Positions 12,373 to 30,998 are shown, counted from the first letter of the stretch. The stretch: DNA of 40,000 nt from Methanosarcina sp. (GCA_036504475.1 DASXVB010000208.1:527-40526), one strand, 5' to 3'. Numbers and translations: made by a program. Notes: a model not told the origin generated them from the sequence alone.

Positions 12373-12502
12373 TTTTCTAATTTGATACTATATAAACCTC
12401 AAAAATTAATGCTGATATTATTTTACAATAGCATACAAAAAATTTAGCATTTTTATTTTTATCTGGCTATAAAATAAGGTTATAATATAAAGATGTGAAT
12501 AA

Positions 12503-12781: not shown

Positions 12782-12795
12782 GATTAATATTAATA
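12782..12795. repeat. target-site duplication, left copy (GATTAATATTAATA)
   Basis: An identical 14-mer in direct orientation lies at 30180-30193, immediately outside the two inverted termini. Confidence 0.8.
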
Positions 12796-13110
12796 GGGAT
12801 ATAAGGGTTGGCATTTTTGATAGTTTTATTTGAATGTTTTAATAATATTTTAAAATTTAGATAGTAAAACTGTGATATTTTGACAGTAGTATATAATTTT
12901 CTCTCAAATCGTAACGCTATATTATTTTTACACAAAATCTTCTGCTTAATAACTCCAAATTATAAAAAATCACAATCAAGAGCGATGTAACAAAAATAAG
13001 TTACACAAGTTTTCAAGGTAAAAGCTTTTTAATCGATCTAAATCCTATCTTTTTGTTAGGTTGTTTGGTAAGATACTCAAACCAGAATATTATTAATACT
13101 AGCAAACTTT
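12796..13110. repeat. casposon left terminal inverted repeat (~315 bp)
   Basis: It starts gggatataagggttggcatttttgatagttttatttgaatgttttaataatattttaaaa. The reverse complement of the right end reads gggatatataggttggcatttttgatagttttatttgaatgttttaataatattttaaaa. Similarity by eye drops to about 70 percent further inward. Confidence 0.8.
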
Positions 13111-13398
13111 TACAAATTATTTGAATTTAACCTGAAAAAATTTACAATTTCCTTGTTACATTCCTAAAAAATAATCAAGTTATAAAGTATAACTGACGTC
13201 TTAATTGCCATAACAAAAAGTAAATTTTTTACATTTTTTTAAATTTGCTGAAAAAAATAAGGCCCTTTTTTATTAATTTTATAGTTATGAAAGAGAATGT
13301 GCTTTTATACTTTTTAGAAATTTAAATCAATTTATTATAAATCATTTTTAGTTAAGAAATTGAAGTACATTTTTCATATCAATTACGCTTAAAATTAT

Positions 13399-14001
13399 TC
13401 AACGAATTTCACTTCTTCTTTCTACATCAATATCATCTAAAATTGTCTCAATTTCTTCCATCAAAATATCTCTTTCTGAACTCTCACTCATTTTATCGAT
13501 ATGTTCACCAACTCTTTCATAGTGCATGTTAGGTTTTTGTTTTTCGTACGCAGACCATATTTTGTTTTTAACATCATCAAGGCTAAAGACTTGGTTTTCT
13601 GATAAACTCAAATATATCATCATTACTAAGTATCTGCAATAAGGATGATCTAATATCACATAAAGATAAGCAAGGCGATCTATACTTTCTGAATTAATTG
13701 GTAAATTATTTCTTCTGTCAATATAATCATAAAATAATTCAAAGAACCAGATATTTGCTTCAATTCCTATACTTTGATAATCTTCTGGATCTAAATGAAG
13801 GTAGGAATTAGTTAGCCTATATATGTAATTTGTATGTTCTGACTTAGAACATCTATAATAACCATTATCTGTATCATTTGTGCCAAATAAAACCTGATCG
13901 AGTATATTAAGTTGACAATCTATCTCTTCCAAGTTTATTCCTGAACTACTTAAATGTTTTATTCTTTCAACTATAAGATAAATCAAAGGATCGTCAATCA
14001 T
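13399..14001 (-). CDS. hypothetical protein (200 aa), directly abutting the upstream HEAT-repeat gene
   Basis: Its ATG directly abuts the stop codon of the 550-aa gene (14001/14002). No motif recognised. Confidence 0.55.
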   Translation of the reverse strand: MIDDPLIYLIVERIKHLSSSGINLEEIDCQLNILDQVLFGTNDTDNGYYRCSKSEHTNYIYRLTNSYLHLDPEDYQSIGIEANIWFFELFYDYIDRRNNLPINSESIDRLAYLYVILDHPYCRYLVMMIYLSLSENQVFSLDDVKNKIWSAYEKQKPNMHYERVGEHIDKMSESSERDILMEEIETILDDIDVERRSEIR

Positions 14002-15654
14002 TTAAGGCCTCACGATTATGATATTATCATTATGAGAATGAAAAGCTATTAAGCTAGTGATTAAAGGTAGGTTTGGTCTCCCCTTACTGCTTGGAGGTGC
14101 ATGAAAATGATAAGTATAACTAACAAAATTTTTACCAATTAAATCGCTAAATAACCGACCTGAACCGATTTTTTCGAAATTTTCCCCAACTATAACTAGT
14201 GGTTTACATTCTTCTATTTTTTTGGAATATGGTGGTCTTCCAGATACCCAATCGGAAACAAGAAACCAGAAGTCTTGTTTTTTGTCACAATACTTCATAT
14301 TGTACTGATCTGGATGAAAAACGACTATGTCAATTTTAAATACTTTTCGAAACTTGTTTCTTAGGAGTCTATTAGCCCAATCTGCATGAACGGTAGTAGT
14401 TAAATAGCTGTAAAGGCCCTTTGTGTAAGCAATCCACCTCTGGTATAATTCGATTCCTTCAGGGCTACAGGCATCATATACATTTTCAATATCTTCAGTA
14501 TCTATCCATCCCATTACTCCTATACTACCATACATCATTGACGAGTAAGGATTTTTTATTGAAGTCAAATAAACCCCATCTCCCCAGGTAAAACCAGGAG
14601 ATTTAGATATAAAGAGTTTTTTTCCATTATTTAAAAAAGATTGGAAGTAAGCAGGAGAAAAATATTTAAGTCCATAAACTTTATCCTGATTTCCATTTAG
14701 TCCAATAAAATTCTCTCTGAACCAATTAGAAGATTTTTTTATATGATCAGAAATTTCTTTTTCTAATACATGATTTTGGATAATATTTTTTAGCTTTTTA
14801 TCCAGAAAAGGCAGGCCTTTTCTTATTGTTCCTATTGTGAATGGTGCTGTTTCTTCAGTATCCATCAAAAGTTCTATTGCATGTTCACAATATTTTCTAT
14901 AGAAATTAAGCTCATCTTTTTTTGTCTCTAAATCCAGATTTCCTAGACTCTGGACTTCTTTTAATGCTTCAGCAAGATTTTCAACAGCTTCAAAAAGCAA
15001 TTCCTTACTCTTTGAACCCTCAATTGCAGATTTAGCTTCTTCCAAATATTTGTTCACTTCTTCTCTAGCTTCCTGTCTTTTGAAAAGTATTGTGTAGAAA
15101 GAACGATAGAAAGGAAGACAAAATTTTGAAGGATTATACAAATAATGTGACTCCTGTGCTGCTTTTTCAAAAAAAGAAATAGCTTTTTCCAATTCTTTTT
15201 TATAATCTTCTTCTATTTTTGCTTGGGAAGCTTTGGATATAGAAACTTTTCCAAGAGCGTGATTTGAATAAACTCTCACATAACGGTCTTCATCAGTGGT
15301 AAGTCTGCGTAAGTCGTTCCATGCCTGTTGTTTATCTGGCACTTGAGAAAACACAGAACCAAGAGCGTCAGCAGCCATAGACCTAACATCACGGTCTTCA
15401 TCAGTGGTCAGTCTATGTAAATCGTCCCATGCCTGTTGTTTATCGGGCACATCAGAAAATGCAGTACCAAGTAAAGAAGCAGCCCAAGATCTCACAAAAC
15501 TGTTTTCATCATAAGTAAGTCCAATTAATTCATTCCATGCCTGTTGTTTATCCAGCAATTGTAAAAAATTGTCTGTTAATTTCTCTAATGCATGTCTACG
15601 CTCTTTTGGATTTTCGCTTAGACATTTATTGTGAATTTTCTCTTGGTCGACCAA
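14002..15654 (-). CDS. HEAT-repeat protein with an uncharacterised C-terminal domain (550 aa)
   Basis: The N-terminal ~130 aa contain three to four PBS-lyase/HEAT-type repeats (DKQQAWNDL.RLTTDEDR.VR..AA.ALG..FS.VP), followed by a helical linker. The C-terminal ~250 aa contain SPGFTWGDGVYLTSIKNPYSSMMYG. Confidence 0.7.
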   Translation of the reverse strand: MVDQEKIHNKCLSENPKERRHALEKLTDNFLQLLDKQQAWNELIGLTYDENSFVRSWAASLLGTAFSDVPDKQQAWDDLHRLTTDEDRDVRSMAADALGSVFSQVPDKQQAWNDLRRLTTDEDRYVRVYSNHALGKVSISKASQAKIEEDYKKELEKAISFFEKAAQESHYLYNPSKFCLPFYRSFYTILFKRQEAREEVNKYLEEAKSAIEGSKSKELLFEAVENLAEALKEVQSLGNLDLETKKDELNFYRKYCEHAIELLMDTEETAPFTIGTIRKGLPFLDKKLKNIIQNHVLEKEISDHIKKSSNWFRENFIGLNGNQDKVYGLKYFSPAYFQSFLNNGKKLFISKSPGFTWGDGVYLTSIKNPYSSMMYGSIGVMGWIDTEDIENVYDACSPEGIELYQRWIAYTKGLYSYLTTTVHADWANRLLRNKFRKVFKIDIVVFHPDQYNMKYCDKKQDFWFLVSDWVSGRPPYSKKIEECKPLVIVGENFEKIGSGRLFSDLIGKNFVSYTYHFHAPPSSKGRPNLPLITSLIAFHSHNDNIIIVRP

Positions 15655-15764
15655 CTACCTACACCATAAGTTCCGATAAAACTAAAAGCTTAAAACAGTT
15701 TCTTTTTGACTTTAGAAATTCATAATAAGATTTATTTAAAATGGATCCAAAATGTATATTGTTC

Positions 15765-15796
15765 TTGATTTTGTACTTCGAGTGCCTAAATCCTAA
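15765..15796. repeat. 32-bp box, copy 2 (ttgattttgtacttcgagtgcctaaatcctaa)
   Basis: Inverted copy of 12341-12372 (29 of 32 match). It lies 78 bp downstream of the Cas1 stop codon. Confidence 0.85.
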
Positions 15797-15873
15797 TTTT
15801 TAGAGTTTCTACAGAGCAAGTAAAATTTACATTTTTACATTTTACATGTAAAAACATGCACATTTTACATATT

Positions 15874-16872
15874 TTAATATAGAAAATTGATATCTTCCCT
15901 TCTTCCCTCTACATATTCCGCTAATTCAAACCCTTTCCTTTCTATTACTTTTCTTCTCGGAATAAGTTTTCCTTCATATTCTATTCTTTCACCCATTCGG
16001 GTTTCATAGGCCTTACTTAGCTTATCTGTCCCTCCCTCTCTTAACCTGAGAGAATAATTATTCATTCTCAAAAAATCGCTTTTAGGAACTCTAAAACCTT
16101 TTGAGAGTAATTTATAGACTGTTACATATATTTCTCCTCTAAAAATCTCCTGTAGATCGTATGCTAAACTTCGTTTTTCATTTCTCATTTCATGTAAAAA
16201 GCCGATACATGGATCAAGCCCTACTGTATTAATTACTCTCAAACATTCGGCTTCAAGTAAGGCATAACCATAATTTAGCATTGTATTAGTATAATCAGAG
16301 GCCCCCCTTCCAGATCTTTCTACAAAACCCCATTTTTCAGGAATAGCTTTCATAAATTCTTTCCAGTAGATTTTTGCTGATTCTCCTTCAATCCCCATTA
16401 ATTCAGGTATATCTTTTGCTTTATCGACTGCTTTAAGATATGGGGAAATAACATAAGATTCAATATCAGGATAAGGCAAGGATTCTAAAACCTTAATAGA
16501 ATTAGCTAGTTTAGCATTAATTATACTCTGAGCAATAGAAAATCTTCTCTTTTCATCATTATAGGTTTTATACTGTGCAATTTTCCGCTTTCCATTTCCC
16601 TCTTTTTCCTGATTAACAGAAGATAATAAACTACCATCCCAATTCAAAATATTAAGCTGAATGTTCTGTAAACTTATCCACTTAAAAGCTTCAAGGGAAA
16701 CATAGCCGGTTTGACCATAAATCAAGATAGATGTTATCTTTTTCTGATTTGGTTGTAAACAATAAATCTCTTCCTCTCTATCTTTAGTTAAAGGAATTCC
16801 GTTTTTAATTATAAGTTTCCCGTCATTAACTTTTAAAGAAATTCCATAACCATCCAAGAGTAAAAGACCCAT
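15874..16872 (-). CDS. cas1: Cas1 homolog, casposase (332 aa)
   Basis: NTMLNYGYALLEAECLRVINTVGLDPCIGFLHEMRNEKRSLAYDLQEIFR is the hallmark Cas1 core with the catalytic His and acidic residues. EGESAKIYW supplies the upstream Glu, and the N-terminus is the typical beta-rich domain. The gene sits next to PolB rather than cas2. Confidence 0.9.
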   Translation of the reverse strand: MGLLLLDGYGISLKVNDGKLIIKNGIPLTKDREEEIYCLQPNQKKITSILIYGQTGYVSLEAFKWISLQNIQLNILNWDGSLLSSVNQEKEGNGKRKIAQYKTYNDEKRRFSIAQSIINAKLANSIKVLESLPYPDIESYVISPYLKAVDKAKDIPELMGIEGESAKIYWKEFMKAIPEKWGFVERSGRGASDYTNTMLNYGYALLEAECLRVINTVGLDPCIGFLHEMRNEKRSLAYDLQEIFRGEIYVTVYKLLSKGFRVPKSDFLRMNNYSLRLREGGTDKLSKAYETRMGERIEYEGKLIPRRKVIERKGFELAEYVEGRREDINFLY

Positions 16873-17006
16873 AAATAATAAACGATGTAAACGAATAAAA
16901 ACGGTTTCAGGAATAATAAAAGGAAAGAGAGATTTATATGTAAAGAACTATCCAGTTCTTTAAGATAAATCTCTCAAGTTTCCAATAACTTAAAACTGTT
17001 ACATTA

Positions 17007-20000
17007 TTAATTAACGCTTAATATGTCTTTACAATAATTAACTAATATTGCTGGAACAATACAATTTAGGTTTAGGCTTTCATTTTTTCGGACCTTACTT
17101 TTTACATCCATTAAAGATTGCTCTGGAATTCCTAATTTTCCCACTTCTTTTACAGATAACCCTAGAATAATCTCTTTCTCTTTTTCTGTTGGCAAATGAT
17201 AATTGCCTCTCAGATGTTTTCTAGCTCGTTTTAAAGTCTTCAGAGATTCTTCTACCCATTTTATGGTGGGTTTTTCTAATCCGGTTTTATACGTTTCTAT
17301 TTCCTTTTTTATTTTTGATAAATCAGAGTTTCTAACGTCTCCTCTTCTTCTTGCTTTTTCCCAGGCAATCTCTACTTTTTCGGTTAAATTTTCAAGCTTC
17401 TCAAAAACCTGAACGTCATCTTCCTCTGCCTCAGGTAACTCTTCAAACTGCTTTACTTGATCAATTTCCTTTCCTATCGCTTTGATGCCTGTTATAAAGA
17501 TTTCTCTGCGTTTAAGCAGTCCTCTTTTTCCCGTGAATTTTGCTTCAGGATGGTTATAATAATCAAAAAAGGTTTTATCCATTCTATTAAAGTATTCAGT
17601 TCCTTCTTTTATTTCCCCTGTTTTTGCATCAATAAATGGATTATTAACCATGTCCTGAAAATTATCACTCATTGGAGCAATTGGCATTATGTCCTTATTA
17701 GGACTATTCCCTCTAAGGAAGAAATTATAAGGTTTAATTCGCTCTTCATATGGCTTTCCGCTATTGATTTGATTAAACCAGTAAAGGACTGTTGGTGTTC
17801 TGATCCCGATTTTTGATATTTCAAACTTATTTCCGTATTTTGAAATTATATCGGTTTCATCTAGGATTCCTTCGTGATAAAGGATAATATCTCTCCACAT
17901 TATTGGATGCCATTTTTTATTTTCTTCTGTTTCTATCTGAAAAATATTAGATATATGCCCCAATCCATGAAGCTTCCCCTCCATTCTTGTAATATCAGGG
18001 ACTCCGTTTTCGTCACGTGCAAAGACCACATATCTTTTTGAAGAGATTCCTAAAAAGAATTGTTGAGGAGTCCTTAATCCGGTTTCTTCATCTTTTACTC
18101 TTCCTTTGAATTTATCCTCAATTTTAAGAAGTTCAGAAACATTCTCATAAGGGTTTAATGGATTAAAGAAATTGGAAACCTCTTCCGCTATTTCTGGTGG
18201 CACGAAAATACTATCGGTATCCATGTAATAATGAGAATACCCTAGTTCCTTAACTTTAGCCTCTGCTATTGCTAACATAAGTCTTGAAGCGGCTGTTATT
18301 GTGGTTCCAATTAGTGGATTAAAAAATTTACCTTCTTTTTCCGATCTGCCAAAAGAAGTAAACTTTTCTTCTCCTCTACAGACTATTAATTCTTTTTCAG
18401 TTTCCTGAGTGTTTAATTCAACGAATATGCCATATCCAAGCGCGTTAGATAAAATTTTTAATCCAAGTTGTTTTCCATCCTTCTCTGAATACTCGGAAGA
18501 ATCTTCATCCAGTAATTTCATTTCCTTTTTAATTTTCTGTCTTTCCTCTACAAAGAATTTAATCAAATTATCTTTTCTTGGGTTTATTTTATATCCTAGT
18601 ATTTTAGTTGACTTTAATCCATTTTGTTTTGTTCCAGGTTCATACTTGTAAGCCATTAGTATTTCAGGGGTTTTTCCAGTAAGGAGCTTACTTGCTACTA
18701 CGTCACAAAGAGTGAACCAGATGCATTTATCTGAACTTAGATTCTCAAGTCCAACAGTTTTTTCTGTATTCTCATCGTAACCTGTTCTAAGTGGTAAAAT
18801 ATCATTATCCGGTTTCACTTTGACTATAGCAGGCATTTTTTTCCATATACTGGGATCTTGCATTTTTTCCAGGGTTATCGAGTCGACAAATTCCTTAATT
18901 TCTTCTGTTGCTTCTTTTTCAACATAGCAGTTTGAAATCATGTAGTCCCATAGTCCTATTAAAACGATAACCGAAGGATACATAGATGTAAAGTCTAAAA
19001 CTTCAGATGGTTTTATCTCATGCCTGAGTTTACATTCCACTCGGCCTGCATAGAAAGCTTCCATTATCCGACCTAAGCTATCAGAAGGATATTCAGGATT
19101 TAAGTCTAAAAATGGCTTTATTCCCATTTGTTTAAACAAGGCTTTGCCTATTGATGCACCACTATAAATTCTGTTAAAAGGAAGATCTTTTAAACCAATA
19201 TTCTTAATCGCTTCTTCTACTTTCACATATACGTCATATGTTGCTTTTACGTCACCCTGTAAATAAGTCAAGTACTCTTTGGTAATCTCTCCATGTTTTT
19301 CTACCTCTAATTTTTGATGTTCTGTTTTTAACATCTTACAGGCTTCTTTTAATGTAAAGTGTTGAGTACCAGATCCAAAAAGAACACTAACTAAATGCGA
19401 ACAATCAAAGAAGTATCCCTTCTTCTTTTCGTCAGTATTGTTAACCACTATTTTTCTTTTTCTTCCTTTTTTATCTATCATTTCTTCTTCACATTTTGCT
19501 TGCGAAAAACTGATAGATTCAGCTAAGCCCATTCTTCTTATTTTGATATTAGGTACTGTCGGAAATTCTGGAAAAGATAGGAGAATATCTCCCTTTCTTG
19601 GGTCACCTTTAACAGTATTCTCGGCTTTGCCAGCAATTCTGCTTAAATCAAAGGGTAAATTATAGCCAATGCAAGGCGTTTCTTTTCCATAGCATTCGGG
19701 TAAAAAGATATTCGCAATAAATTCAGATGTTGAATATAACGGAATATTTTTTTCTTCAGCATATTCCTTAAGTATCTTGATCTCCTTATAAGATGGTGGA
19801 ATTTGCATAAGGGAATTTTGCAGATTGGTAAAACGAGTATTTATTACCGCGTGTTTCTCAGGCATCGGAACATAAAAGAACCCGTTTTCCTGCAATTCCC
19901 CATTTTCCAAAATTTCAAAATACCCGACTTCCAAATTTTGATAACAGTCTGTCGTTGTTTCAGTATCAAGTACTAGAAGCCTAGGATATGATGTTTTTAA

Positions 20001-20093
20001 AGAGTCTTGATAAAAACCACAAAATTTTGAGCCTTTCTTTCTCCTTTCTTCGGTCTCGATATATCCTCTACAAAATGCTTCTTTGTATTCCAT
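17007..20093 (-). CDS. polB: family B DNA polymerase (1028 aa) with a C-terminal HTH-containing extension
   Basis: All motifs are present: Exo I LVLDTETT, Exo II YNLPFDL, Exo III YLQGDVKATYDVY, motif A DFTSMYPSV, motif B KILSNALGYGIF, motif C YYMDTDSIF, and KxY as SSKRYVV. Confidence 0.92.
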   Translation of the reverse strand: MEYKEAFCRGYIETEERRKKGSKFCGFYQDSLKTSYPRLLVLDTETTTDCYQNLEVGYFEILENGELQENGFFYVPMPEKHAVINTRFTNLQNSLMQIPPSYKEIKILKEYAEEKNIPLYSTSEFIANIFLPECYGKETPCIGYNLPFDLSRIAGKAENTVKGDPRKGDILLSFPEFPTVPNIKIRRMGLAESISFSQAKCEEEMIDKKGRKRKIVVNNTDEKKKGYFFDCSHLVSVLFGSGTQHFTLKEACKMLKTEHQKLEVEKHGEITKEYLTYLQGDVKATYDVYVKVEEAIKNIGLKDLPFNRIYSGASIGKALFKQMGIKPFLDLNPEYPSDSLGRIMEAFYAGRVECKLRHEIKPSEVLDFTSMYPSVIVLIGLWDYMISNCYVEKEATEEIKEFVDSITLEKMQDPSIWKKMPAIVKVKPDNDILPLRTGYDENTEKTVGLENLSSDKCIWFTLCDVVASKLLTGKTPEILMAYKYEPGTKQNGLKSTKILGYKINPRKDNLIKFFVEERQKIKKEMKLLDEDSSEYSEKDGKQLGLKILSNALGYGIFVELNTQETEKELIVCRGEEKFTSFGRSEKEGKFFNPLIGTTITAASRLMLAIAEAKVKELGYSHYYMDTDSIFVPPEIAEEVSNFFNPLNPYENVSELLKIEDKFKGRVKDEETGLRTPQQFFLGISSKRYVVFARDENGVPDITRMEGKLHGLGHISNIFQIETEENKKWHPIMWRDIILYHEGILDETDIISKYGNKFEISKIGIRTPTVLYWFNQINSGKPYEERIKPYNFFLRGNSPNKDIMPIAPMSDNFQDMVNNPFIDAKTGEIKEGTEYFNRMDKTFFDYYNHPEAKFTGKRGLLKRREIFITGIKAIGKEIDQVKQFEELPEAEEDDVQVFEKLENLTEKVEIAWEKARRRGDVRNSDLSKIKKEIETYKTGLEKPTIKWVEESLKTLKRARKHLRGNYHLPTEKEKEIILGLSVKEVGKLGIPEQSLMDVKSKVRKNESLNLNCIVPAILVNYCKDILSVN

Positions 20094-20111
20094 AATTTAA
20101 CCTTCTTTGTA

Positions 20112-20429
20112 TCAATTTTCCAGTAATTCATTACTTACTACTTCTAACGTTTCACTCATTACTTTAAGCAAGGCTCCTGCACTTATTAAAGCAAATTTTT
20201 CTAAATCGCTTTTAGAAGCGTGTTTAGATCGTCTTTCTGGGGGGAGTTTATTTTGATAGTATGTCATTTTAAAATGGCAAAACGGGCAAACCAAAATTAT
20301 ACTAGGCGAATAATTTCTTCCTAAATAGTGATGTTTTTGTAAAGGAAGGTCACTTCTTCCGCAAGTCTGACATTTTTTATCTGGCATAATATGATTGAAA
20401 CACACGGTTTGGCTCCTTTGATCGTTCAA
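20112..20429 (-). CDS. HNH endonuclease (probable start at the internal ATG, 20387)
   Basis: CQTCGRSDLPLQKHHYLGRNYSPSIILVCPFCHFKM has the CxxC ... HH ... CxxCH His-Me finger pattern. It ends 19 nt upstream of the polB start. Confidence 0.8.
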   Translation of the reverse strand: MNDQRSQTVCFNHIMPDKKCQTCGRSDLPLQKHHYLGRNYSPSIILVCPFCHFKMTYYQNKLPPERRSKHASKSDLEKFALISAGALLKVMSETLEVVSNELLEN

Positions 20430-21060
20430 TTCCTTCTAATGTACTTTCTAATTTCCATTTCTTCCCATTAACATCTGTGACAGTTTTCATTTTGTATTTG
20501 TTGAGGATTTTTTCTTTTTCCTTCACCGTTTTTTTGCTTCCTAAAGAGTCTGTATCTCTTTTGTACTGTCTAAGAAGTGCTCGGTCTTTACTACTTCTTA
20601 TCCGAATGTATTCGGATTTACCTTCAGAATAAATTAGATTCTTAGTTTCAATTGAATCGGTTTTTCTTACACTCCATCTACCAGAATTTTTATTTTTATA
20701 GAGAGTATTACCCAGGTGTATCCTGACTGTTTTTTCTGAGATTCCCCTCTCCCCTATCTTCTTTTCATTTTTATTGATCTCTTTAATTGCTTTTTCGAGA
20801 GTAAGCTTACTGTCTGCTCGCATCATATTTGCGACTTGAAGTGCTTTAGTTCTTTCATATGTCTGATCCCCTAAGCTTTCCCAAGTTTTGGAGCTCAGAT
20901 CATAATCGGGTTTTTTTAAATCTCTTAAATCTTTTAGGCATCTATCTGGAAATATTATGTGTAGTTTTTCAATATGTTTTGCATATTTTGTTGTTCTATC
21001 GCCTCTTTTTAGCCAATCTCCAAACAATCTATCTTTAGGAGAAAATGCAGGTCTTGGCAC
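20377..21060 (-). CDS. basic hypothetical protein (227 aa), casposon core-associated
   Basis: GTG start preceded by ggagag. Lys/Arg-rich. It overlaps the HNH gene start, suggesting an operon. No motif recognised. Confidence 0.6.
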   Translation of the reverse strand: MPRPAFSPKDRLFGDWLKRGDRTTKYAKHIEKLHIIFPDRCLKDLRDLKKPDYDLSSKTWESLGDQTYERTKALQVANMMRADSKLTLEKAIKEINKNEKKIGERGISEKTVRIHLGNTLYKNKNSGRWSVRKTDSIETKNLIYSEGKSEYIRIRSSKDRALLRQYKRDTDSLGSKKTVKEKEKILNKYKMKTVTDVNGKKWKLESTLEGIERSKEPNRVFQSYYAR

Positions 21061-21248
21061 ATTAAATCACTCTCCTTCTTCTTTTTCTTCTGCTCTTAAT
21101 TTCTTCAAAATTTGACCATAGCCTACGCTAACCGAATAATTACAATCCTAGAAAGAATTAAGTCAAATCACGTTTTTTAAATCTCAATGTTCAAAAACAA
21201 TAATGCAATGAACTTCTGTTAATAAGTGTAATTTTATAAATTTCTCTT

Positions 21249-21770: not shown

Positions 21771-21809
21771 TTAACGGTTTTTTTGGAGGGGGGCTAAAAA
21801 AACCGTTAA
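21771..21809. repeat. perfect 14-bp stem hairpin ttaacggttttttt / aaaaaaaccgttaa with a G-rich 11-nt loop
   Basis: Read directly from the sequence. It lies in the non-coding stretch upstream of the zinc-ribbon gene. Confidence 0.6.
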
Positions 21810-22133
21810 TGAGTTTTCTAATATGTTAAACAAAAATGTGGGTTATTGGGATAAACCTACTACTATAGTCAAGAGGCTAAATAATGCAACTATTAGATGG
21901 ATTACAAAGTGATTTTTGTTGCAGCAATTATAGGCGTGACTATAGGTCATTTTGCTTCTAAAAAACAAGAAAGTTAAGCAATTATATAACAGAAAAAACT
22001 AAAAAACTTGATTTTATTAAACCTGAGTTTGAGGTTTTTAGGTTTGATTCTCAGGAAATTAGACAAAAAATCCTTAACATTCTTATGTTGATTGGAAAAA
22101 ACTAGGTTTTTTTCGAAGGGAACTTTACATTAT

Positions 22134-22349
22134 ATGAAACAAAATGCTAAAAGCGATAAGCCTTTCACTCTCAACAGCCATGTTTTAGAGAGAGTTAAAG
22201 CTTGGAAAACTTAGTTTCTAGGGTGACAGGTTAAGGTTTAAAAAGGTTAAGTTTTAAGGTTAGGAGCTAAGTTTTAGGGTTTGGGAGTCATGTTTAAGTT
22301 TGGGGTTAAGTTTTAAGGCAAAGGGTTAAAGAAAGAAAAAAACCTAAAT
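22134..22349 (+). repeat. ~215-bp duplicated module, copy 1 (mini-ORF plus GGTTAAG/TTTTAAGG iterons)
   Basis: It aligns with 22608-22820. It begins atgaaacaaaatgctaaaagcgataagcctttcactctcaac, continues through repeated ggttaag(t)tttaagg units, and ends aagggttaaagaaagaaaaaaacctaaat. Confidence 0.75.
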
Positions 22350-22607
22350 GTTTTTTTACAAAATGTTTTAAGCTTTCTAAAAAAACGTTTTTAACTTATT
22401 TTTTAGCTGTTTAAATAGATGTTTTTAAGACAAGTTTTCACAAATATGTCTTTCAACTTCTTTTAAAAACTTTAAACAACATTGCTCATGAATTTCTAAA
22501 ACCAAAATGAGTACTTTTTCTATAAATAATAAAATAAAAAGCCAATGTCCTAGCAGATTTGAGTTAAACAACAACCAAAAAGTTAGTCTTTTGAAGAATT
22601 TGCATTA

Positions 22608-22820
22608 GTGAAACAAAATGCAAAAAGTAATAAATCATTCACCCTTAACGGCAATATTTTGGAGATGGTTATGGCTTGGGAAAACTTAGTTTCTGGGGGC
22701 GAGGTTAAATTTTAAGAAGGACTTTAGGTTTTAAGATAAGGGGCTAATTTTTGGGAAACAGGTTTTAAAATGGGATTAAATTTTAAGGTTAAGGGTTAAA
22801 GAAAGAAAAAAAACTAAATT
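22608..22820 (+). repeat. ~215-bp duplicated module, copy 2
   Basis: It begins gtgaaacaaaatgcaaaaagtaataaatcattcacccttaac, has the same iteron block, and has the same aagggttaaagaaagaaaaaaaactaaat end. It is offset 474 bp from copy 1. Confidence 0.75.
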
Positions 22821-23042
22821 GAAATATGTATAAGCAAGAAGTCTATATCCAGAATTTAATACATGAGAACAGTAAGTTAAACATTAAACTTCTTTCTCAG
22901 AATCCGTGAAGTAATAAAGCTTTTTGAGATTTGATAATGCTTTGAGAACATGGAACTGTAGAGAAATTCCATAATATAGTTTTCAGCAGCGCTCCAACAA
23001 TCACAATGTTAGATGAATATTAATAGACTAACTTTTGTAGGC

Positions 23043-25811
23043 TCAATAGTTCCTATTTTCTTCCATCTCAGCTTTAATAGATTGAATATTTTGTTCACAT
23101 ATCTTGAAATGTGAATGACCACCACCAACTTTTTTTTCTAATATCTTAAGTGAGCGTTCAAGCAAAAACAAAGCTTTTTCGTACTCCTTCATTCTTGCAT
23201 AGAGTAGAGCGAGACCATTTAACGTTTCTGCAACGATAAGGTTTTCCAATCCAAGTGCCTTCTCGCGGATGTTAAGTGCAGGTATATAGAGTAAAAGTGC
23301 TGTTTCATAATCTTCCATTAGATAAAATACTCCTGCGAGAGCGTTTAGCGTTGCTGCAACATTAAGGCTTTCTGCTCCGAATATCTTTGTGTTGATGTCA
23401 AGTGTACGCATATAAAGCGAAAGCGCTGTTTCGTATTCTCCAGCTTTTATATAAAATCCTGCGATATTGTGTAGTTTTGTTGCAACTTCAGGGTGTTCTG
23501 GACCAAGTACTTTTTCAGATATTTCGAGTGCACGTATATAGAGTAAAAGTTCTTTTTCATACTCTCCCATTTTTTCATAAAGCATAGCAAGATTGTTTAA
23601 TATTTTTGCAGTATTGGGATGTTCAGATCCGAGCACATTTTCTATTATTTCGAGTGCACGTAGATAAAGTGGAAGAGCTTTTTCGTACTCTTCAAGATGT
23701 TCATATAGTAGAGCGAGGCCGTTTAGTGTGTTTCCAACATCAAGATGTTCAGGTCCAAGCACTTCTTCAGATATTTCGAGTGCCCGTAGATAAAGTGGAA
23801 GAGCTTTTTCGTATTCCCTTGTTTGAAAATATAGTCCTGCTAGATTGTGTAGTGATGTTGCAACGTGAAGTTTTTTTGATTCAAGCATTTTTTCAGTTAT
23901 TTCGAGTGAACGTATATAATGCAGAAATTCTTTGTCATGCTCTGCTATGTCTTCGTAGAGTGTAGTAAGATTCTTTAGCTCTTTTTCAGATATTTCAAGT
24001 GCTCGGATAAAGAGTGGAAGAGCGTTTTCATACTCTCCTGTGAGACAATATAGTCCTGCGAGATTATTTAGCGTTGTTGAAACGCAAGGGTGTTCAGAAC
24101 CAAACTCTTTTTCGGATATTTCTATTGCACGTATATGGAGTGGAAGAGCTTTTTCATACTTACCCATCTTTGTATATAGTATAGCGATATTACTTAATAT
24201 TTCAACAACTTTAGGTTCTTCCGGATTATTTCTGGTTTCCATAATCTGGAGTAACTCTTCATATATAGGGGTAATTAAGTGCCAAAAAGCTGCTCTGTCA
24301 AATGGATCTGAAGCAGCAATAAACCAATTATATAAATCTTTGGTTTCAAGCGTCTTTTTTGCGTGATAAAAGGCTTCTGTCATGGCTTTTTCATGTTCGA
24401 GGGTTATTTCTTTAATATCGATTTCCCTTAGTTTGCCATTATAATGCTCAAACATGAATTCATGGACACTTCTCCTTTCCTCAGGCTCGTTATGTTCTTG
24501 ATATTCTTGCCAGCTCTGCCTCATTAACCGGTGCATACTCCATTGACCTTTCTCTAATTCATCAATAAAAGAAAAACTATGAATCCTAGATATTTCATTT
24601 GGGGGACAACGTGTGAATTTTGTAACTAGAATATTCAATATCTCGCGATTCCAAAAGCGAGGCACAGAGAGAACTTTTATCAACGATTCTTTTCCCTCAT
24701 CTAGATATTTTATGAAACTGTTAAAAACCTCTTTTGGTACCTCTGCAAAATCACCTGGACACGGTTCTCTGATGTTCTTTATGCTTTTATAGGTGTCAAT
24801 TGAGAGATCCAAGTAATAAGGCACGCCAGCACTGCTATTGATAATAGCATCTTGGATATCATTCTCAAGGACACCATAGTATTTGAGCAAGTAACGAGCA
24901 TCTTCTTCTGGAAGGCTTCCAATCTCATGCGTTTCAATTAAATTTTCCCACATCAATTTTTCTTTGTCAGTATATTTTGCCCATTGGGGGGGTTCTTGTC
25001 CGCAAAGTACCCAGAGGCAGGAAGAAGAGAGAAGTTTTTGTATCAATTTTCTAATCCATTGATCTGCGGAACTTAATTTCGCCAGAGACCTGTCTTTTCC
25101 CCAGAGAGCCTCATAACTGTCTATAAAGATAACTGCCGCCTCAGATGTTTTTTGAAGATATTTATGTAAGTCATAAGCCCAGTAAAGATAAAGCCGCTTT
25201 TCAATTTCTGATGGTTCCATATTTACTAGTCGGGAAATTTCATCCGTATTTTCCAAAGCCCACTCACTGTATTTTTCCGGCAATTTCTTGACGAGGTTTC
25301 TTATATTTAATAGTAACTTTGTCGGATTAAACACACCACCAATGCTCGATAAGTCATCTCCAATATCAAGTAAGTGGGTAACGATGCTGTCTTTAGAATA
25401 GTTTTCTCGGTACAGAGGAACTCGTGGGTTTACTTTTTTCCAATAAAGAGCGTGTGCAATATCGAACATATGGAATCTGATACCATATTCATCCTGAAAC
25501 TGATCTCTCAATATTTCCAAGAATTTCTGAGGATGCCTAAACTCTTCAGTTTCAAAATTTACTGCTACCCATAAAATACTGGATTTTTTGTGCAACCCAT
25601 TATACTCTATAATTACTTTGGGTAGTTCTTTTCGTAGGCTTGTTTTACCTATACCAGCAACTCCATAGTAGATCAAAACGCTGCGTTCTTTTTCCTTTAT
25701 ATTTTCAAGGGCATTTTTGAAAGCCTGAATGAATTCCTCTCTATCTACAAAGGGTCTTTCTTCCCCTGAAATCCTTTCCTCTTTCTCGGAAAAAAATGAA
25801 ACAAATGACAC
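23043..25811 (-). CDS. STAND-type P-loop NTPase fused to a TPR array (922 aa)
   Basis: Walker A is YGVAGIGKTSL and Walker B-like is AAVIFIDSYEALW. The C-terminal ~390 aa consist of about 9 tandem TPR units (ALPLYLRALEISEKVLGPEHP.VA..LNNLA.LY). Confidence 0.85.
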   Translation of the reverse strand: MSFVSFFSEKEERISGEERPFVDREEFIQAFKNALENIKEKERSVLIYYGVAGIGKTSLRKELPKVIIEYNGLHKKSSILWVAVNFETEEFRHPQKFLEILRDQFQDEYGIRFHMFDIAHALYWKKVNPRVPLYRENYSKDSIVTHLLDIGDDLSSIGGVFNPTKLLLNIRNLVKKLPEKYSEWALENTDEISRLVNMEPSEIEKRLYLYWAYDLHKYLQKTSEAAVIFIDSYEALWGKDRSLAKLSSADQWIRKLIQKLLSSSCLWVLCGQEPPQWAKYTDKEKLMWENLIETHEIGSLPEEDARYLLKYYGVLENDIQDAIINSSAGVPYYLDLSIDTYKSIKNIREPCPGDFAEVPKEVFNSFIKYLDEGKESLIKVLSVPRFWNREILNILVTKFTRCPPNEISRIHSFSFIDELEKGQWSMHRLMRQSWQEYQEHNEPEERRSVHEFMFEHYNGKLREIDIKEITLEHEKAMTEAFYHAKKTLETKDLYNWFIAASDPFDRAAFWHLITPIYEELLQIMETRNNPEEPKVVEILSNIAILYTKMGKYEKALPLHIRAIEISEKEFGSEHPCVSTTLNNLAGLYCLTGEYENALPLFIRALEISEKELKNLTTLYEDIAEHDKEFLHYIRSLEITEKMLESKKLHVATSLHNLAGLYFQTREYEKALPLYLRALEISEEVLGPEHLDVGNTLNGLALLYEHLEEYEKALPLYLRALEIIENVLGSEHPNTAKILNNLAMLYEKMGEYEKELLLYIRALEISEKVLGPEHPEVATKLHNIAGFYIKAGEYETALSLYMRTLDINTKIFGAESLNVAATLNALAGVFYLMEDYETALLLYIPALNIREKALGLENLIVAETLNGLALLYARMKEYEKALFLLERSLKILEKKVGGGHSHFKICEQNIQSIKAEMEENRNY

Positions 25812-26107
25812 TGAATCGTCACTCCTTACTTTCTACGTAAGTCAAAAACATTGAAGACTTATGTTTGAGGTATTCTATAATACACTATCGAAATTAGCAG
25901 ATATTATAGTGAGTGTTTTAGTAAACTAATGAGAGATTTAATTGTATAGAAAATTAGGATCTCCAAGTTTTATGACAAAGTTTAAGTTTTAGAGAGAAAA
26001 CACATTCGAGCTAATGGTTTGATCTACTTTAGAAAAGAAGCCAACAACATTGAAAATCAGCCTTTGGACGTAGAAAAGCCACAGCTTTTCATTAATGTAG
26101 AAGAGAA

Positions 26108-26245
26108 ATGAACTTTATTTTGGCTTTAACCCCTGGGGAAATCCGAAAAACAGGGATCAAGCACAGGAGTGGATTAAAGTATCTAAAGGAAAAAGCGAGG
26201 GAGGGAAAGTTAAATTTTAATACGTCTGTTATGAAAAAATTATAA
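26108..26245 (+). CDS. small HTH ORF (45 aa) homologous to the PolB C-terminal tail; possibly a gene remnant
   Basis: MNFILALTPGEIRKTGIKHRSGLKYLKEKAREGKLNFNTSVMKKL aligns with PolB residues ..EIILGLSVKEVGKLGIPEQSLMDVKSKVRKNESLNLNCIVPAIL (IL.L...E..K.GI...S......K.....LN.N..V). It is on the opposite strand to polB. Confidence 0.45.
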   Translation: MNFILALTPGEIRKTGIKHRSGLKYLKEKAREGKLNFNTSVMKKL

Positions 26246-26321
26246 AATATTATAATTCTTGAGTATGTGAAACTTTAAGTTATACAACTGAGAATTTTTT
26301 AAAAAAAGAAAAATTAAAAAA

Positions 26322-26440
26322 ACTTGGAGTAGTCGCTTAAAATTCCAGGGCTTTTCCATGAGGATAGAGGAAAGTAATGTTTTTATTCAGAATAAGACTC
26401 CTTAAAGACGATAGAGCTTAGGCAAAATAAAGAAGTACCT
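26322..26440 (+). pseudogene. Cas1 N-terminal remnant (frameshifted)
   Basis: Frames read ..LKFQGFSMRIEESNVFIQNKTP* then LLKDDRA* then LRQNKEV. These parallel the intact Cas1 sequence LLLDGYGISLKVNDGKLIIKNGIPLTKDREEEIYCLQPNQKK. The spacing after the PolB-tail-like ORF is the same as in the intact polB-cas1 junction. Confidence 0.45.
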
Positions 26441-26831
26441 TAGATTGTTTGAAAAACTTTCCTCTGCTAATTTTTGATTTAATTAAAAATTCTTTTGCTT
26501 TTTCAAGATTGCTTTGAGTTCTTGCATAGTCAATTCATTGGTCATCGGTTAAGGAATTTTCTTGCCTGAAAGCTATCGATTTTGCACCTTAAGCCTGATT
26601 AAACTTTGGCCTTTTTACATGAAATCGATACCTTGTTCCAGTCCACAATATGTTAAAATTTATAACAACTGTTGTGGAAATGGAGGCAATTTGTCACGAT
26701 TCCTCACTTAACCGAAGACGCATGATAGTCAATTGGATATTTGTCAACAGTATAAGTACTGAAAAAAAGATGAATTCCAGCGTAGAGATCTCACAGCATC
26801 CTGTTGACTCTGAAAAGTTGTCAAGAAACCA

Positions 26832-28478
26832 TTATTTTTTTTCTATGTTTTTTCCCTTCCAGCTTTTTAACTGACGGATTTTCAAACTGGAATCAATGCA
26901 TTTAATAGTATTCGCATTAAGTCTATGTGGATAACATAACAAGAAATAATACATAAATTGTAGTTTGTCATTTACGACTTCTGGTGTAAGTAGATCTATT
27001 TTAGTTGCCTCAATAGTTAACTCGTTCCAGCTTTGAGGCATTTTGTAATCTTTCATACTTGTTTTCCCGTTATAGCATCGCCATAAGAATAAATCCGCTT
27101 TTAAATCAGGTTGAAATGTATACTTACAGATACGCGTAATTTCTTCCCACACTACTTCTAGTAAGTCTCTGCGCTTTCTTCTAACTAAGATATCAACCAG
27201 TGCTCCTAAGTGATAAGAAGAACCATGAAATGCCATCGAGTCAATTTCGACTTCAGAAATGCCATGCATTGAAGAAATTATCTCATTTGAGCTTATATAA
27301 GGACTCGGTATTCCTTTTCCCTTATAGTCATTTCCAAATGTTATTTCCGATATGATATCAGTAATTATCCTGTTTGACAATTCTTTGTCATTGAATTCTA
27401 AAGCTACTAAACTCATTATTATGAAGAAAGGTGTAGCTGACTCTCCCCAGTACCAAATTTTTTTAGGATATAGTCTCTTTATGAATTCATAGATCAGATT
27501 GTCAATTTCGTAGTTACTTTCAGTTTTATTTCTGAAAAGCTCATAAGCCGATAGCCAGCCAAGAACAATAGTTAACCTTGCTTTATATATCTCTCCTCCG
27601 TCACCAAATGGCATTCCTTCTAAATAATTTTCTTTAGAGATAAATTCCTTTTTTAACTCTTCTAATTGATTATTTATTTTTTGTAATATAATTTCATAAG
27701 ATTGGATCCAATCTTTTTCTGCTAATGAGAACTTTTCTATCAAATTAAACATATAACTGCAAAGTATAGTCCATCCCTCAATTATTGGAATATGATTTTT
27801 CTTGTTCTCATAAGGTTGTAAGACATATTGGGTCAATAGTATACTACTTGAAATCTTTCTCTTAATAGAAGGTTTACTATTACTTTTTGCAAACAAGATA
27901 GATTCAATAAAATTAGCATAGAGGTCTTTATTCAGAAATCCGTCCCCTTCTGAAAGAAATAACTCCAAAAATACTCGAAATTCTGAAGGTTCTACGGGCA
28001 GAAATGATCCATGAATTCCTAAAAACTTTTGAACTAATTCGGGGTAAATTATTGTATTAAGTTTTGGATATCCTTGTTGTTTATTTTTCAAGTTTATATC
28101 AGCAATATTTTTTATAACAGGTTCAGAAATTAATCCGTTAGTTACTAAAAAAGGTTTATGCTCAGCAGATATATCAACAGATGGATGATTTATGGGAATT
28201 CTAATTAGATCCATGATTTCTCCCTGTATATTTCTCCACTCAGCTGTTTTGATATTTCCACCTTTTAATTGGAATGCATGAACAGTTCCGTCCTTATCTA
28301 TCGAGATTATGTCCTTACCTTGTTCTATGGAACTATGAGATGAAATAGAAATTATTTTATGATTTTCAGAAATAAGATACTGGCAAAAGGGGATCTGATA
28401 ACCAATTTCATTGGTATTAGTCAACCAATTTTCGATTACTCTCTTTATCAATCCACTCTCTCCTTTTTCTTTCAACAA
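26832..28478 (-). CDS. hypothetical protein with a PD-(D/E)xK-like nuclease-fold N-terminus (548 aa; start uncertain)
   Basis: The N-terminal segment NEIGYQIPFCQYLISENHKIISISSHSSIEQGKDIISIDKDGTVHAFQLKGGNI resembles the E...GxD(I/V)(I/V)..D....h.(Q/E)xK core of Mrr/DUF4365-type restriction-fold domains. The remainder is helical. It overlaps the upstream 196-aa gene by up to 62 nt. Confidence 0.65.
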   Translation of the reverse strand: MLKEKGESGLIKRVIENWLTNTNEIGYQIPFCQYLISENHKIISISSHSSIEQGKDIISIDKDGTVHAFQLKGGNIKTAEWRNIQGEIMDLIRIPINHPSVDISAEHKPFLVTNGLISEPVIKNIADINLKNKQQGYPKLNTIIYPELVQKFLGIHGSFLPVEPSEFRVFLELFLSEGDGFLNKDLYANFIESILFAKSNSKPSIKRKISSSILLTQYVLQPYENKKNHIPIIEGWTILCSYMFNLIEKFSLAEKDWIQSYEIILQKINNQLEELKKEFISKENYLEGMPFGDGGEIYKARLTIVLGWLSAYELFRNKTESNYEIDNLIYEFIKRLYPKKIWYWGESATPFFIIMSLVALEFNDKELSNRIITDIISEITFGNDYKGKGIPSPYISSNEIISSMHGISEVEIDSMAFHGSSYHLGALVDILVRRKRRDLLEVVWEEITRICKYTFQPDLKADLFLWRCYNGKTSMKDYKMPQSWNELTIEATKIDLLTPEVVNDKLQFMYYFLLCYPHRLNANTIKCIDSSLKIRQLKSWKGKNIEKK

Positions 28479-29007
28479 TTTCTCTTATTTTTTCCTGTAT
28501 ATTTGGGTCAAATTGCATTTTTGAGTAATCACTTTTGATTCTTTCATAATCATTTGGATTGACGATGATATCCGGCATAGTTGGGTTTCCAAACTCATCA
28601 AAAATAATACTCACCTTATCTAATACTTCCAAATACCATTCAGATATCGGTTTTGATTTGCAATCTACTCTGTTTCCTGTTTGATGCGTAGTTTCTTCGA
28701 AAGCATCAATTAAAAGTTTGCCTTGTTTTTTCCTCATTTCTTCAGTGATTTCTGAAAATTTAGAATAATAAGCATCTAATCCCTTTTCGATCAAATCTTC
28801 AGGTTTTATTCTTAACTCTGTCGAAATTGTTTTAAATTCTTTTTCTTCTGAACGTCCACTTGCACTATTTATTTCCAAATTATTTCCTTCATATATGGGT
28901 CTTTTTTGAGCAACTTTCATTAACGTATCTTTTTGAGTCTCTTTTATCATATTTCTTTGAAAATTAATCAGAAGCTTCCTTTTTATTTCTGGATAATCAG
29001 GTAACAT
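28417..29007 (-). CDS. hypothetical protein (196 aa), first gene of a two-gene cassette
   Basis: Clean ORF with a charged C-terminus (KIREIVERKRREWIDKESNRKLVD) that overlaps the next gene. No motif recognised. Confidence 0.6.
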   Translation of the reverse strand: MLPDYPEIKRKLLINFQRNMIKETQKDTLMKVAQKRPIYEGNNLEINSASGRSEEKEFKTISTELRIKPEDLIEKGLDAYYSKFSEITEEMRKKQGKLLIDAFEETTHQTGNRVDCKSKPISEWYLEVLDKVSIIFDEFGNPTMPDIIVNPNDYERIKSDYSKMQFDPNIQEKIREIVERKRREWIDKESNRKLVD

Positions 29008-29508
29008 ATAATAACCTATAGATTTTCAATTTAAAACTTCTTGCTCAAGTAAATATATAGATTCTTTATGTAGGGAATGTATCAAAATTTCTGTAAATCT
29101 TCTCTGATAAGTTTAACGGCTACAAAATAATAAAGTATAGCCTTTTTGGTTCTATGTAACCATTGAGGTTTATCTCCTTAGTAACTCAGAGTTTATTCTG
29201 TTTTTTAACTTAATGTTCCCATACAATAAGAATCTGAGAGTTTCCGCCGACAAAAGTATACGTTAGAACAAAATCGTTTTGAGAATTACCTATCCAGTCT
29301 AAAACAAGACTTTTGAAGCTATTTCTCTTACACTAGCATCAAAAAATTTGATTTTTTTTATCAGATTAATTCTATAGATAATATATATTTAATACATGAA
29401 AACATTTGAGAAATTATCCTGAAGAAATTTCTCAGTTGCATCGAAAATTGAGTATTTTATTCAACGTATATTACAAAAACAAATATTTTTTTAGTCGATA
29501 TAACTTTT

Positions 29509-29785
29509 AAAAAATACTGTCAAAATTTTACAGTTACATACAAAAAACTTGACGTTTTTATCAGTTAAATAATATAAATATTATATTTTTTATTTAGAGC
29601 GATTTTAGAAAAAAACAGTACTGTGGATTTATTTCTGTAGCGTACAGGAGATTTTACTTCTTTATTAAATAGATATTATTAAATTAACTGTTTATTAAAA
29701 CAAAGTATACTTTAAAAAAATTAATTTTTGAATGTATATTTTCAAAAAAGGTACTGTGAATATTTAACAGTTGCGTATACTTTTT
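29509..29785 (+). repeat. three ~35-bp subterminal direct repeats, each containing TACTGT-N9-11-ACAG
   Basis: The copies are aaaaaatactgtcaaaattttacagttacataca (29509), aaaaacagtactgtggatttatttctgtagcgtaca (29612) and aaaaaaggtactgtgaatatttaacagttgcgtatac (29746). A related tactgtcaaaatatcacagtt lies inside TIR-L (12861-12895, reverse strand). Confidence 0.65.
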
Positions 29786-29859
29786 TAATTTTCCTATATC
29801 TCAAAATTTAGTTCAAGGGATAAGATTCAAACCCAAAATATCAAATTAAATCTTTTTTG

Positions 29860-30179
29860 GAAAAATTTTCTGGTATTAAAACGATATTTTCTTTTGAATA
29901 TCTTTACAAAACAAATAAAGAAAAAGATTTAGATTAGATTAAAAAATTCAGAAATTCTACAAAATTTCACGTAACTATTTTTGATTACAGTTCTACCCAT
30001 TGTGATTTCAACAATTTAGAATTACTAAACAGAAAATTTCTGATAAAAAATGCATTAGTGTTACGGTTTTAGAGAAAAGTATGAATGACTGCTAGAAAAT
30101 AACATTTTTACTATCAAAGTTTTAAAATATTATTAAAACATTCAAATAAAACTATCAAAAATGCCAACCTATATATCCC
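29860..30179. repeat. casposon right terminal inverted repeat (~320 bp)
   Basis: It ends ...ttttaaaatattattaaaacattcaaataaaactatcaaaaatgccaacctatatatccc, which is the reverse complement of the left terminus. Confidence 0.8.
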
Positions 30180-30193
30180 GATTAATATTAATA
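30180..30193. repeat. target-site duplication, right copy (GATTAATATTAATA)
   Basis: Identical to 12782-12795. Confidence 0.8.
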
Positions 30194-30984: not shown

Positions 30985-30998
30985 ATTTTTGTAATAAG

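Follow-up and report, generated by a model that had tools for sequence, protein, structure and literature searches.

Does a cas1 gene that stands alone beside a gene for a family B DNA polymerase (PolB), in DNA of an uncultured Methanosarcina, belong to a complete mobile element, and if so, to which kind and how did it come to its site? The stretch analysed here (the window; 40,000 nucleotides of Methanosarcina sp., GCA_036504475.1, DASXVB010000208.1:527-40526) had been described in an earlier note, made from the sequence alone, as carrying a complete casposon with a solo Cas1 and a PolB, long terminal inverted repeats (TIRs) and a 14-bp target-site duplication (TSD). Casposons, known since 2014, are transposons that are moved by a Cas1 enzyme and carry their own DNA polymerase. 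Alignments, a Cas1 tree and empty target sites in related genomes support that description, and we conclude with high confidence that positions 12796-30179 (17,384 bp, 31.8% GC) are an apparently intact casposon, most likely a cargo-rich member of family 4 with a sequence-specific target. What is new is the large intact element and an integration hotspot defined at base resolution; the casposon kind itself was already known.

The ends of the element are sharply defined. When 12796-13300 is aligned locally with 29680-30179 in reverse complement, the tips that the earlier note had called nearly identical over about 60 nt agree in 58 of 60 positions, and similarity is recognisable to about 320 bp from the tip (the note had given about 315 bp). 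The left TIR (12796-13116, plus strand) has the tip GGGATATAAGGGTTGGCATTTTTGATAG and three subterminal GAYAGT motifs, and the right TIR (29843-30179, minus strand) was delimited by its alignment with the reverse-complemented left end; over about 335 bp the two are about 74% identical (blastn: 344 columns, E = 3e-57). Both TIRs have GAYAGT at positions 24 and 65, and the left one has it at position 87 too (window positions 12819-12888 and 30087-30156); these repeats are possible binding sites for a protein. Within the window, the 25-nt tip occurs in two places only, the two ends of the element (0 expected). Both tips are abutted by the same 14-mer, GATTAATATTAATA, at 12782-12795 and 30180-30193 (both plus strand); the two copies are identical and in direct orientation, the exact sequence is found nowhere else in the 40 kb, and the left copy is common to an older remnant. 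A perfect palindrome of 12 bp, ATTAATATTAAT, spans positions 2-13 of the 14-mer. An independent JGI metagenome assembly (3300035523, Ga0376481_001766, 19,972 bp) contains the same element with both junctions, and its core is also present in one Logan contig; the metagenomes named as sources are JGI 3300035523 and SRR11794808. For the PolB, NCBI has a 100% identical protein under the label 'MAG TPA: DNA polymerase [Methanosarcina sp.]'.

Between these ends, all long open reading frames (ORFs) lie on the minus strand. In order of transcription they code for proteins of 196, 548 and 922 aa and, after an ORF-poor block of 1.6 kb, for proteins of 58, 227 and 105 aa, PolB, Cas1 and proteins of 550 and 200 aa. 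The Cas1 homologue (332 aa; 15874-16872, minus strand) is a casposase and not a CRISPR-associated Cas1. It matches Pfam PF01867 with E = 1e-61 and NCBIfam TIGR00287 with 187 bits (cut-off 72), stays below the cut-off of every subtype-specific CRISPR Cas1 model, and has its best PDB match in 6OPM, the casposase of M. mazei (E = 4e-72, about 46% identity), whereas CRISPR Cas1 structures reach E = 3e-32 at best. The conserved catalytic residues E162, H227 and D239 are consistent with the predicted integrase activity. The ORF stops at the position equal to residue 351 of the 431-residue 6OPM chain, where the C-terminal helix-turn-helix (HTH) domain of family 2 would start, and none of the three reading frames in the 220 bp that follow cas1 encodes such a domain.

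Among database proteins the casposase falls into a tight group of 326-333 aa (60-90% identity; the member from M. flavescens 82%), apart from about 100 casposases of about 400 aa that are at most 46% identical to it. In a distance-based neighbour-joining tree (100 replicates, rooted on three partial CRISPR Cas1 sequences), the short proteins form a clade that is sister to all sampled casposases of about 400 aa, which are family-2-like. The short clade was recovered in 100 of 100 replicates, the clade of the longer enzymes in 98 and the split of all casposases from CRISPR Cas1 in 100; the phylogeny that the earlier note had asked for thus places the Cas1 with the casposases. A 335-aa protein (P0099) taken up as a candidate for family 4 was rejected, as the tree shows it to be a truncated member of family 2.

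The gene for the family B DNA polymerase (1028 aa; 17007-20093, minus strand; PF03175/PF00136) ends 134 bp upstream of cas1, in the arrangement that the note had reported. Of the motifs that the note had claimed, a motif scan found ExoI (LVLDTE, residue 40), ExoIII (YLQGD, 277), motif A (DFTSMYPS, 367) and motif C (YMDTDS, 623), and ExoII (NLPFD) and motif B (KILSNALGYG) were identified by eye in the translation; by eye only, the C-terminal tail of the polymerase appears HTH-like. The pairing of cas1 and polB is present in every related locus, and no second cas1 or polB was found in the window by tblastn. The three small ORFs that the note had placed upstream of these genes on the minus strand are indeed there, but its label 'HNH nuclease' for the first of them is weakly supported. 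This zinc-binding protein (20112-20429; 105 aa as the longest ORF, 91 aa according to the JGI gene caller) has a pattern, CxxC...HH...N...CxxCH, that is invariant in six homologues; it has no Pfam match, and a profile of the six homologues had its best matches, at E = 0.005-0.05, in HNH domains, those of IscB and McrA, so that we speak of it as HNH-like. The second is a basic protein of 227 aa (pI 9.96; 20377-21060) with homologues in all related casposons examined; its profile gave ARF GTPase matches only in the PDB, which we judged spurious. The third (58 aa; 21249-21425) is a zinc-ribbon protein with the motif CxxC...CxxC.

The target is a 14-mer that is conserved throughout the genus. The site lies 94 bp upstream of the start codon of a host gene (30288-30752, plus strand) for a 154-aa protein with a zinc-ribbon-like N-terminus; the earlier note had called it AT-rich, palindromic and intergenic, all of which agrees with a 12-bp palindrome about 95 bp upstream of this gene. 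The gene has 169 database relatives, is conserved across Methanosarcina with invariant CxxC...CxxC motifs and is 84% identical to that of M. flavescens. An AlphaFold model of the protein (pLDDT 91.5) consists of an all-beta N-terminal half and a helical C-terminal half, and found no Foldseek match in the PDB at E <= 0.001. A scan with the 154-aa protein, one genome per species, gave 23 loci and, together with other loci fetched, 28 that could be read. The 14-mer is exact in 18 of the 28; the other ten differ by 1-4 bases (by 1-2 except in the degenerate copy of locus L024). In the 24 loci where it was located by motif search it stands 94-110 bp upstream of the start codon (94-101 bp except in L012). 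The flanks of the 14-mer are AAAAGGG on the left and GGTTTATAACC on the right.

Thirteen of the 28 loci are empty, with a single copy of the 14-mer, as one would hope from the search for empty sites in relatives that the earlier note had proposed; in the remaining 15 a TIR tip (...ATACCC) abuts the 14-mer. The left flank of the empty sites (...TTTCATAAAAAGGG) matches the left flank of an insertion in M. flavescens. The filled sites hold casposons, decayed casposons or solo TIRs: full casposons are present in the window, in M. flavescens (L005) and in L043, decayed ones with fragments of cas1 in L015, L021, L025 and L040, and solo TIRs in L022, L023 and all complete genomes of M. mazei that were examined. 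The casposon of M. flavescens (10.2 kb; about 250 bp per TIR; Cas1 82% identical) lies at the orthologous site in the opposite orientation and is flanked by the 14-bp TSD GATTAGTATTAATA. That of L043 (9.7 kb) has the most divergent Cas1 of the clade (60%) but the same site and the same TSD, and its TIRs are 100% identical over at least 400 bp. A TIR of the window type is found at the same target in the opposite orientation in L021, and a TIR-only mini-element of about 870 bp in a metagenome-assembled genome (MAG) of M. barkeri (L017, 3408-4301) has AATTAATATTAATA on one side and GATTAATATTAATA on the other; it is a derivative of a casposon, either internally deleted or non-autonomous. At least four types of TIR have thus met this one target, those of the window, of M. 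flavescens, of L043 and L015, and of L055, where the tip is different and only about 160 bp of upstream sequence are available. The target is a conserved, sequence-specific 14-mer that is used by the whole casposase clade in either orientation, and the hotspot is a genus-wide integration site with serial insertions against a regenerated 14-mer beside persistent solo TIRs.

In the M. mazei genomes CP009511 and CP009512 (L047 and L049, 9631-9964) a solo TIR of about 320 bp ends at the same 14-mer upstream of the orthologous gene, and in L048, also M. mazei, an insertion sequence (IS; DDE_Tnp_1) has inserted 11 bp from the tip of the solo TIR. The M. mazei contigs reached through the orthologue of the 154-aa protein held solo-TIR sites (one of them interrupted by the IS) and L055, and in none of them was a cas1 or a polB reached. 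An element of the M. flavescens type was found at another locus in other metagenomes (L056), with CATTAAACCTAACC on both sides. From this second site it follows that the length of the TSD is fixed at 14 bp, and the comparison of the two targets suggests ATTAA-N3-TAA as the recognition core. Dispersal of the TIR as a miniature inverted-repeat transposable element, which the earlier note had named as a finding that would speak against it, was rejected: in 241 million metagenome records the 24-mer of the window's TIR tip has one further copy, in L063, and this lies at the orthologous site. A degenerate left-end TIR about 5.3 kb downstream of the 154-aa gene in L004 (about 19890-20160, preceded by GATTAAATCAATAG) and L016 (15282-15398) suggests a second related target in the same neighbourhood.

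The DNA left of the element, which the earlier note had taken for host sequence, is instead the tip of an older casposon. The remnant (12341-12781, plus strand) consists of about 120 bp that resemble the sequence directly 3' of cas1 (12341-12463) and of a degenerate third TIR in right-end orientation (12477-12781), whose tip ...CAAAAATGGGGAACATATATACCC ends exactly at the left 14-mer; the element therefore landed beside an older remnant. This TIR matches the left TIR of the window with 74% identity (E = 2e-34), and is nearer to the M. flavescens type (75% over 330 bp, tip included) than to the TIRs of the window. The solo TIR with the same 14-mer in complete M. mazei genomes is a parallel to it. 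The order of events would then be that a casposon of the M. flavescens type, or its solo TIR, was first at the site, that the 17.4-kb element entered the regenerated 14-mer between the old TIR and the 154-aa gene, and that an IS-associated event truncated the older element. A fragment of a DDE_5 transposase (152-aa ORF; 11989-12447), of which a related copy is present in L026, abuts the inner edge of the remnant and probably marks the event that shortened it.

For the mechanism of insertion, casposases that have been characterised serve as a model (PMC8464041, PMC10359463 and, for the structure 6OPM, PMC6977970). As in these, the enzyme would join the 3' ends of the TIR tips (GGG...) to target positions staggered by 14 bp; gap repair would then duplicate GATTAATATTAATA, and copying of the element is presumably the task of the family B polymerase encoded next to the casposase. 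Since the 14-mer is restored with every insertion, it can serve as a target anew; integration of a mini-casposon into a resident TSD has been seen in vivo (PMC10359463). The palindromic target fits insertion in either orientation. For an enzyme that lacks the HTH domain, candidates for the recognition of TIR and target are the 227-aa protein, the zinc ribbon, the HTH-like tail of PolB and the GAYAGT motifs.

Whether the element is still mobile, and whether it came as a whole, has to be weighed, and some observations speak against our reading. A single insertion of the full 17.4-kb element is known and a second full-length copy was not found, which is why movement of the 17.4 kb as one unit is only plausible. 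The interiors of the TIRs have diverged to about 74% identity, as compared with the 100% identical TIRs of L043; this may mean that the insertion is not a very recent one or that homogenisation of the TIRs does not take place. In addition, collinearity with related genomes is lost beyond about 12.3 kb and about 32.6 kb, possibly because of a real rearrangement at a hotspot of mobile elements, possibly because of a mis-assembly of the MAG.

The divergence of the TIRs and the single known insertion would also be expected of a fossil, that is, of a once-mobile casposon that became fixed here and is immobile now, perhaps kept for its cargo (the STAND NTPase-TPR protein and the HEAT protein described below). 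Most occupied sites elsewhere are decayed, as seen from the fragments in L015, L021, L025 and L040 and the solo TIRs in M. mazei, L022 and L023. However, the core ORFs of the window element have kept their full length, with catalytic residues and polymerase motifs intact, both TSD copies are identical, the tips agree in 58 of 60 positions, and close relatives bear signs of recent movement (the identical TIRs of L043, the second target of L056). We therefore consider immobility possible but rather unlikely, and the element may still be active.

The second question, that of the unit, turns on the cargo. The non-core DNA amounts to about 10.7 kb, close to the figure of about 10 kb in the earlier note. 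Downstream of cas1 are ORFs for a 550-aa protein (14002-15654, minus strand) with N-terminal HEAT repeats (PF13646, E = 4.5e-11) and an uncharacterised C-terminal half, and for a 200-aa protein (13399-14001, minus strand) with no family detected. The HEAT units are encoded by a 108-bp tandem repeat (15278-15552), and homologues of the 550-aa protein are present in the related elements L021 and L063. On the other side of the core lies the gene for a STAND-type NTPase with a long TPR array (922 aa; 23043-25811, minus strand), with weak N-terminal AAA_16/NACHT matches and a strong TPR array, followed by ORFs for proteins of 548 aa (26832-28478, minus strand) and 196 aa (28417-29007, minus strand), again with no family detected. 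For the 200-, 548- and 196-aa proteins no convincing match came from Pfam, NCBIfam, PHROGs or PADLOC, and for the HEAT and TPR proteins there were only repeat-level matches, the 922-aa protein having no convincing match in PADLOC. STAND NTPases are a recurrent cargo of casposons: one of 1800 aa is carried by a family-2 element from fermentation metagenomes (L035, 4000-16800), which has a truncated 335-aa casposase and a divergently oriented PolB.

Between the TPR gene and the core is an ORF-poor block (21949-22820), in which a unit of about 215 bp is present twice (22135-22349 and 22609-22819) and which also contains GGTTAAGTTTTAAGG motifs. The block shows 71% conservation in L063 (857-1556), though the gene order there is different, and may be a regulatory or RNA element; Rfam has no family for it, nor any in or near the element beyond chance-level matches. 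Small ORFs (MKQNAKS...) are present on the plus strand of the block.

From such a cargo one could imagine a composite, in which a core casposon of about 6-10 kb gained the DNA at 21.4-29.8 kb after its arrival and the whole unit never transposed. The relatives are indeed only 9.7-10.2 kb long, and their cargo is wholly different; the TPR protein of L040 has only repeat-level similarity (24%) to the 922-aa protein, and L063 has the HEAT gene and the non-coding block in another arrangement. Against this, the interior of the element was found to contain no further TIR or TSD, no integrase and no IS boundary, and variable cargo is normal for casposons (PMC4779613). Furthermore, the cargo lies inside both TIRs and would therefore be mobilised whenever it was acquired. 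We regard late assembly as a little less probable even than immobility, and take transposition of the whole unit as a plausible reading. Finally, origin of cas1 from a CRISPR adaptation module or a degraded CRISPR-Cas locus, with PolB nearby by coincidence, is suggested by the database label 'CRISPR-associated endonuclease Cas1' and the match to generic Cas1 models, but is effectively refuted by the absence of cas2, any other cas gene and a CRISPR-like repeat array from the 40 kb (as the note had said), by scores below all subtype-specific cut-offs, by the grouping with casposases in every replicate, by the position between TIRs with a TSD and by the constant pairing with polB.

The wider flanks contain other mobile and rearranged DNA. 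Positions 1-11200 carry an unrelated integrated element with a tyrosine integrase (8438-9769, minus strand), a DUF3987/primase-like protein (6114-7772, minus strand) and a 536-aa ORF without family (3452-5062, minus strand); it is similar to the integrase elements that have been described alongside casposons in Methanosarcina. A tRNA-Gln block (38579-38846) is 8.4 kb downstream of the target here and about 1.6 kb upstream of it elsewhere, the AF_0843 and DUF2551 genes are absent from the flanks, the gene at 11245-11892 is inverted and of PPK2 there is an inverted 70-aa fragment only (35314-35526). A single inversion did not account for the displacement of the tRNA-Gln block and the inversion of the genes. 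To the right of the host gene, 3.7 kb (30800-34500; 21-28% GC) are free of ORFs and contain small MITE-like inverted repeats that share GACTCTGYTCCAAAATCTAGTGAT (about 31000-31065 and 32018-32225); an (AATA)n run lies at 30955-30984.

How does the element compare with known systems? In 2016, casposons with long TIRs, TPR cargo and intergenic targets were described in Methanosarcina, together with tandem insertions into a regenerated TSD, solo TIRs and cohabiting tyrosine-integrase elements (PMC4779613). Among these, family 4, known from MetMaz1FA1A3-C1 at site IR2 of M. mazei, has TIRs of 225 bp, a Cas1 that forms a sister group to family 2, and genes for a Zn-finger protein and for a TPR protein of 827 aa (PMC4779613), and according to a review the HTH fusion is confined to family-2 casposases (PMC9939771). 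Because the casposase of the window has no family-2 HTH and belongs to a clade that is sister to family 2, family 4 is the most likely assignment, and we hold it to be the probable one, if with less assurance than the identity of the element as a casposon. The likeness extends to the host genus, to the long TIRs (225 bp reported; about 320 bp in the window, about 250 bp in M. flavescens and at least 400 bp in L043), to a Zn-finger (here the 58-aa ribbon) together with a large TPR protein (827 aa reported, 922 aa here) and to an intergenic target that is empty in most strains.

Other points count against family 4. The Cas1 tree is distance-based and has no references of families 1, 3 or 4. The family is defined in part by the absence of an HTH-HEAT gene, whereas the window element has a HEAT-repeat protein, in which a Pfam scan detected no HTH. 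A REX1-like protein reported for family 4 from HHpred was not seen among the seven casposon proteins of the window scanned for PF14966 (hmmscan against Pfam, E up to 10, a method less sensitive than HHpred). The TSD reported at IR2 is 35 nt long (PMC4779613), as opposed to 14 bp in the window, L005, L043 and L056. This last difference may be only apparent. The solo TIR of M. mazei ends with ...CAAAAACGAAGAGTATCTATACCC against GATTAATATTAATA, and its last 24 nt are identical to the tip of the M. flavescens casposon. From this we infer that the 35 nt may be composed of the 14 nt and about 21-24 nt of tip shared with a resident solo TIR. With the 35 nt explained in this way, IR2 would be the very site described here, and if this is true, a uniform spacing of 13-15 bp across casposases would be restored.

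Family 2 (MetMaz-C1 of M. mazei Go1 and AciBoo-C1 of Aciduliprofundum boonei) shares with the window element the combination of Cas1, a family B PolB and an HNH-like protein, the 14-bp TSD, the beginning of the TIR tip (GGGATATA in the window, GGGATATAGGTAAC... in MetMaz-C1; PMC10359463) and the closest PDB structure, 6OPM, at about 46% identity. There are also differences. The window casposase is about 70 aa shorter and has no C-terminal HTH, a domain described as indispensable for integration in family 2 (PMC8464041); it stays outside the family-2-like clade in 98 of 100 replicates; the TIRs exceed those of family 2 in M. mazei (31-59 bp) by a factor of 5-10; and the target is ATTAATATTAAT rather than CGCA with an AT-rich stretch. 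The gene set of family 2 includes two HTH proteins, of which one has HEAT repeats at its C-terminus, and an HNH endonuclease; the window element has the weakly supported HNH-like protein and a HEAT-repeat protein whose repeats are N-terminal.

Family 1 of Nitrosopumilus (NitAR1-C1) offers a precedent in that its casposase has no HTH and is nevertheless sequence-specific (PMC8464041), and in that its site lies beside a conserved host gene. It differs from the window element in the host phylum, in a protein-primed PolB, in its target at the 3' end of aEF-2, in a TSD of 13 bp and in its Cas1, which is not among the closest database relatives of the window Cas1.

With some small probability, clearly below that of the alternatives weighed above for mobility and cargo, the HTH-less Methanosarcina casposases of 326-333 aa form a lineage apart from family 4 that reads the 12-bp palindrome without a dedicated DNA-binding domain, in which case recognition of target and TIR may be supplied by the 227-aa or the zinc-ribbon protein. 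Whatever the label, the element preferred here as a member of family 4 adds a large, cargo-rich example to the known casposons and not a new principle. Biochemical study of casposases is, to our knowledge, limited to families 1 and 2. The element and its relatives are a ready system for an HTH-less casposase from Methanosarcina: the tips are defined, the 14-bp target is exact and has a palindromic core of 12 bp, 28 loci offer natural sites both empty and filled, and a second natural target narrows the motif to ATTAA-N3-TAA.

Casposons are the proposed ancestors of the CRISPR adaptation machinery, and the locus invites a comparison with it. Both use the integrase chemistry of a Cas1 fold, with a staggered attack that duplicates a site of fixed length, and in both integration is repeated at a regenerated site beside a fixed flank, which in CRISPR arrays is the leader-repeat junction. 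Unlike the adaptation machinery, the window has no Cas2, no array and no spacers, and the DNA inserted is the element itself. If the short casposases are indeed a separate lineage, the locus would be a natural intermediate between the insertion of a transposon and the leader-proximal, repeat-duplicating integration of the CRISPR kind.

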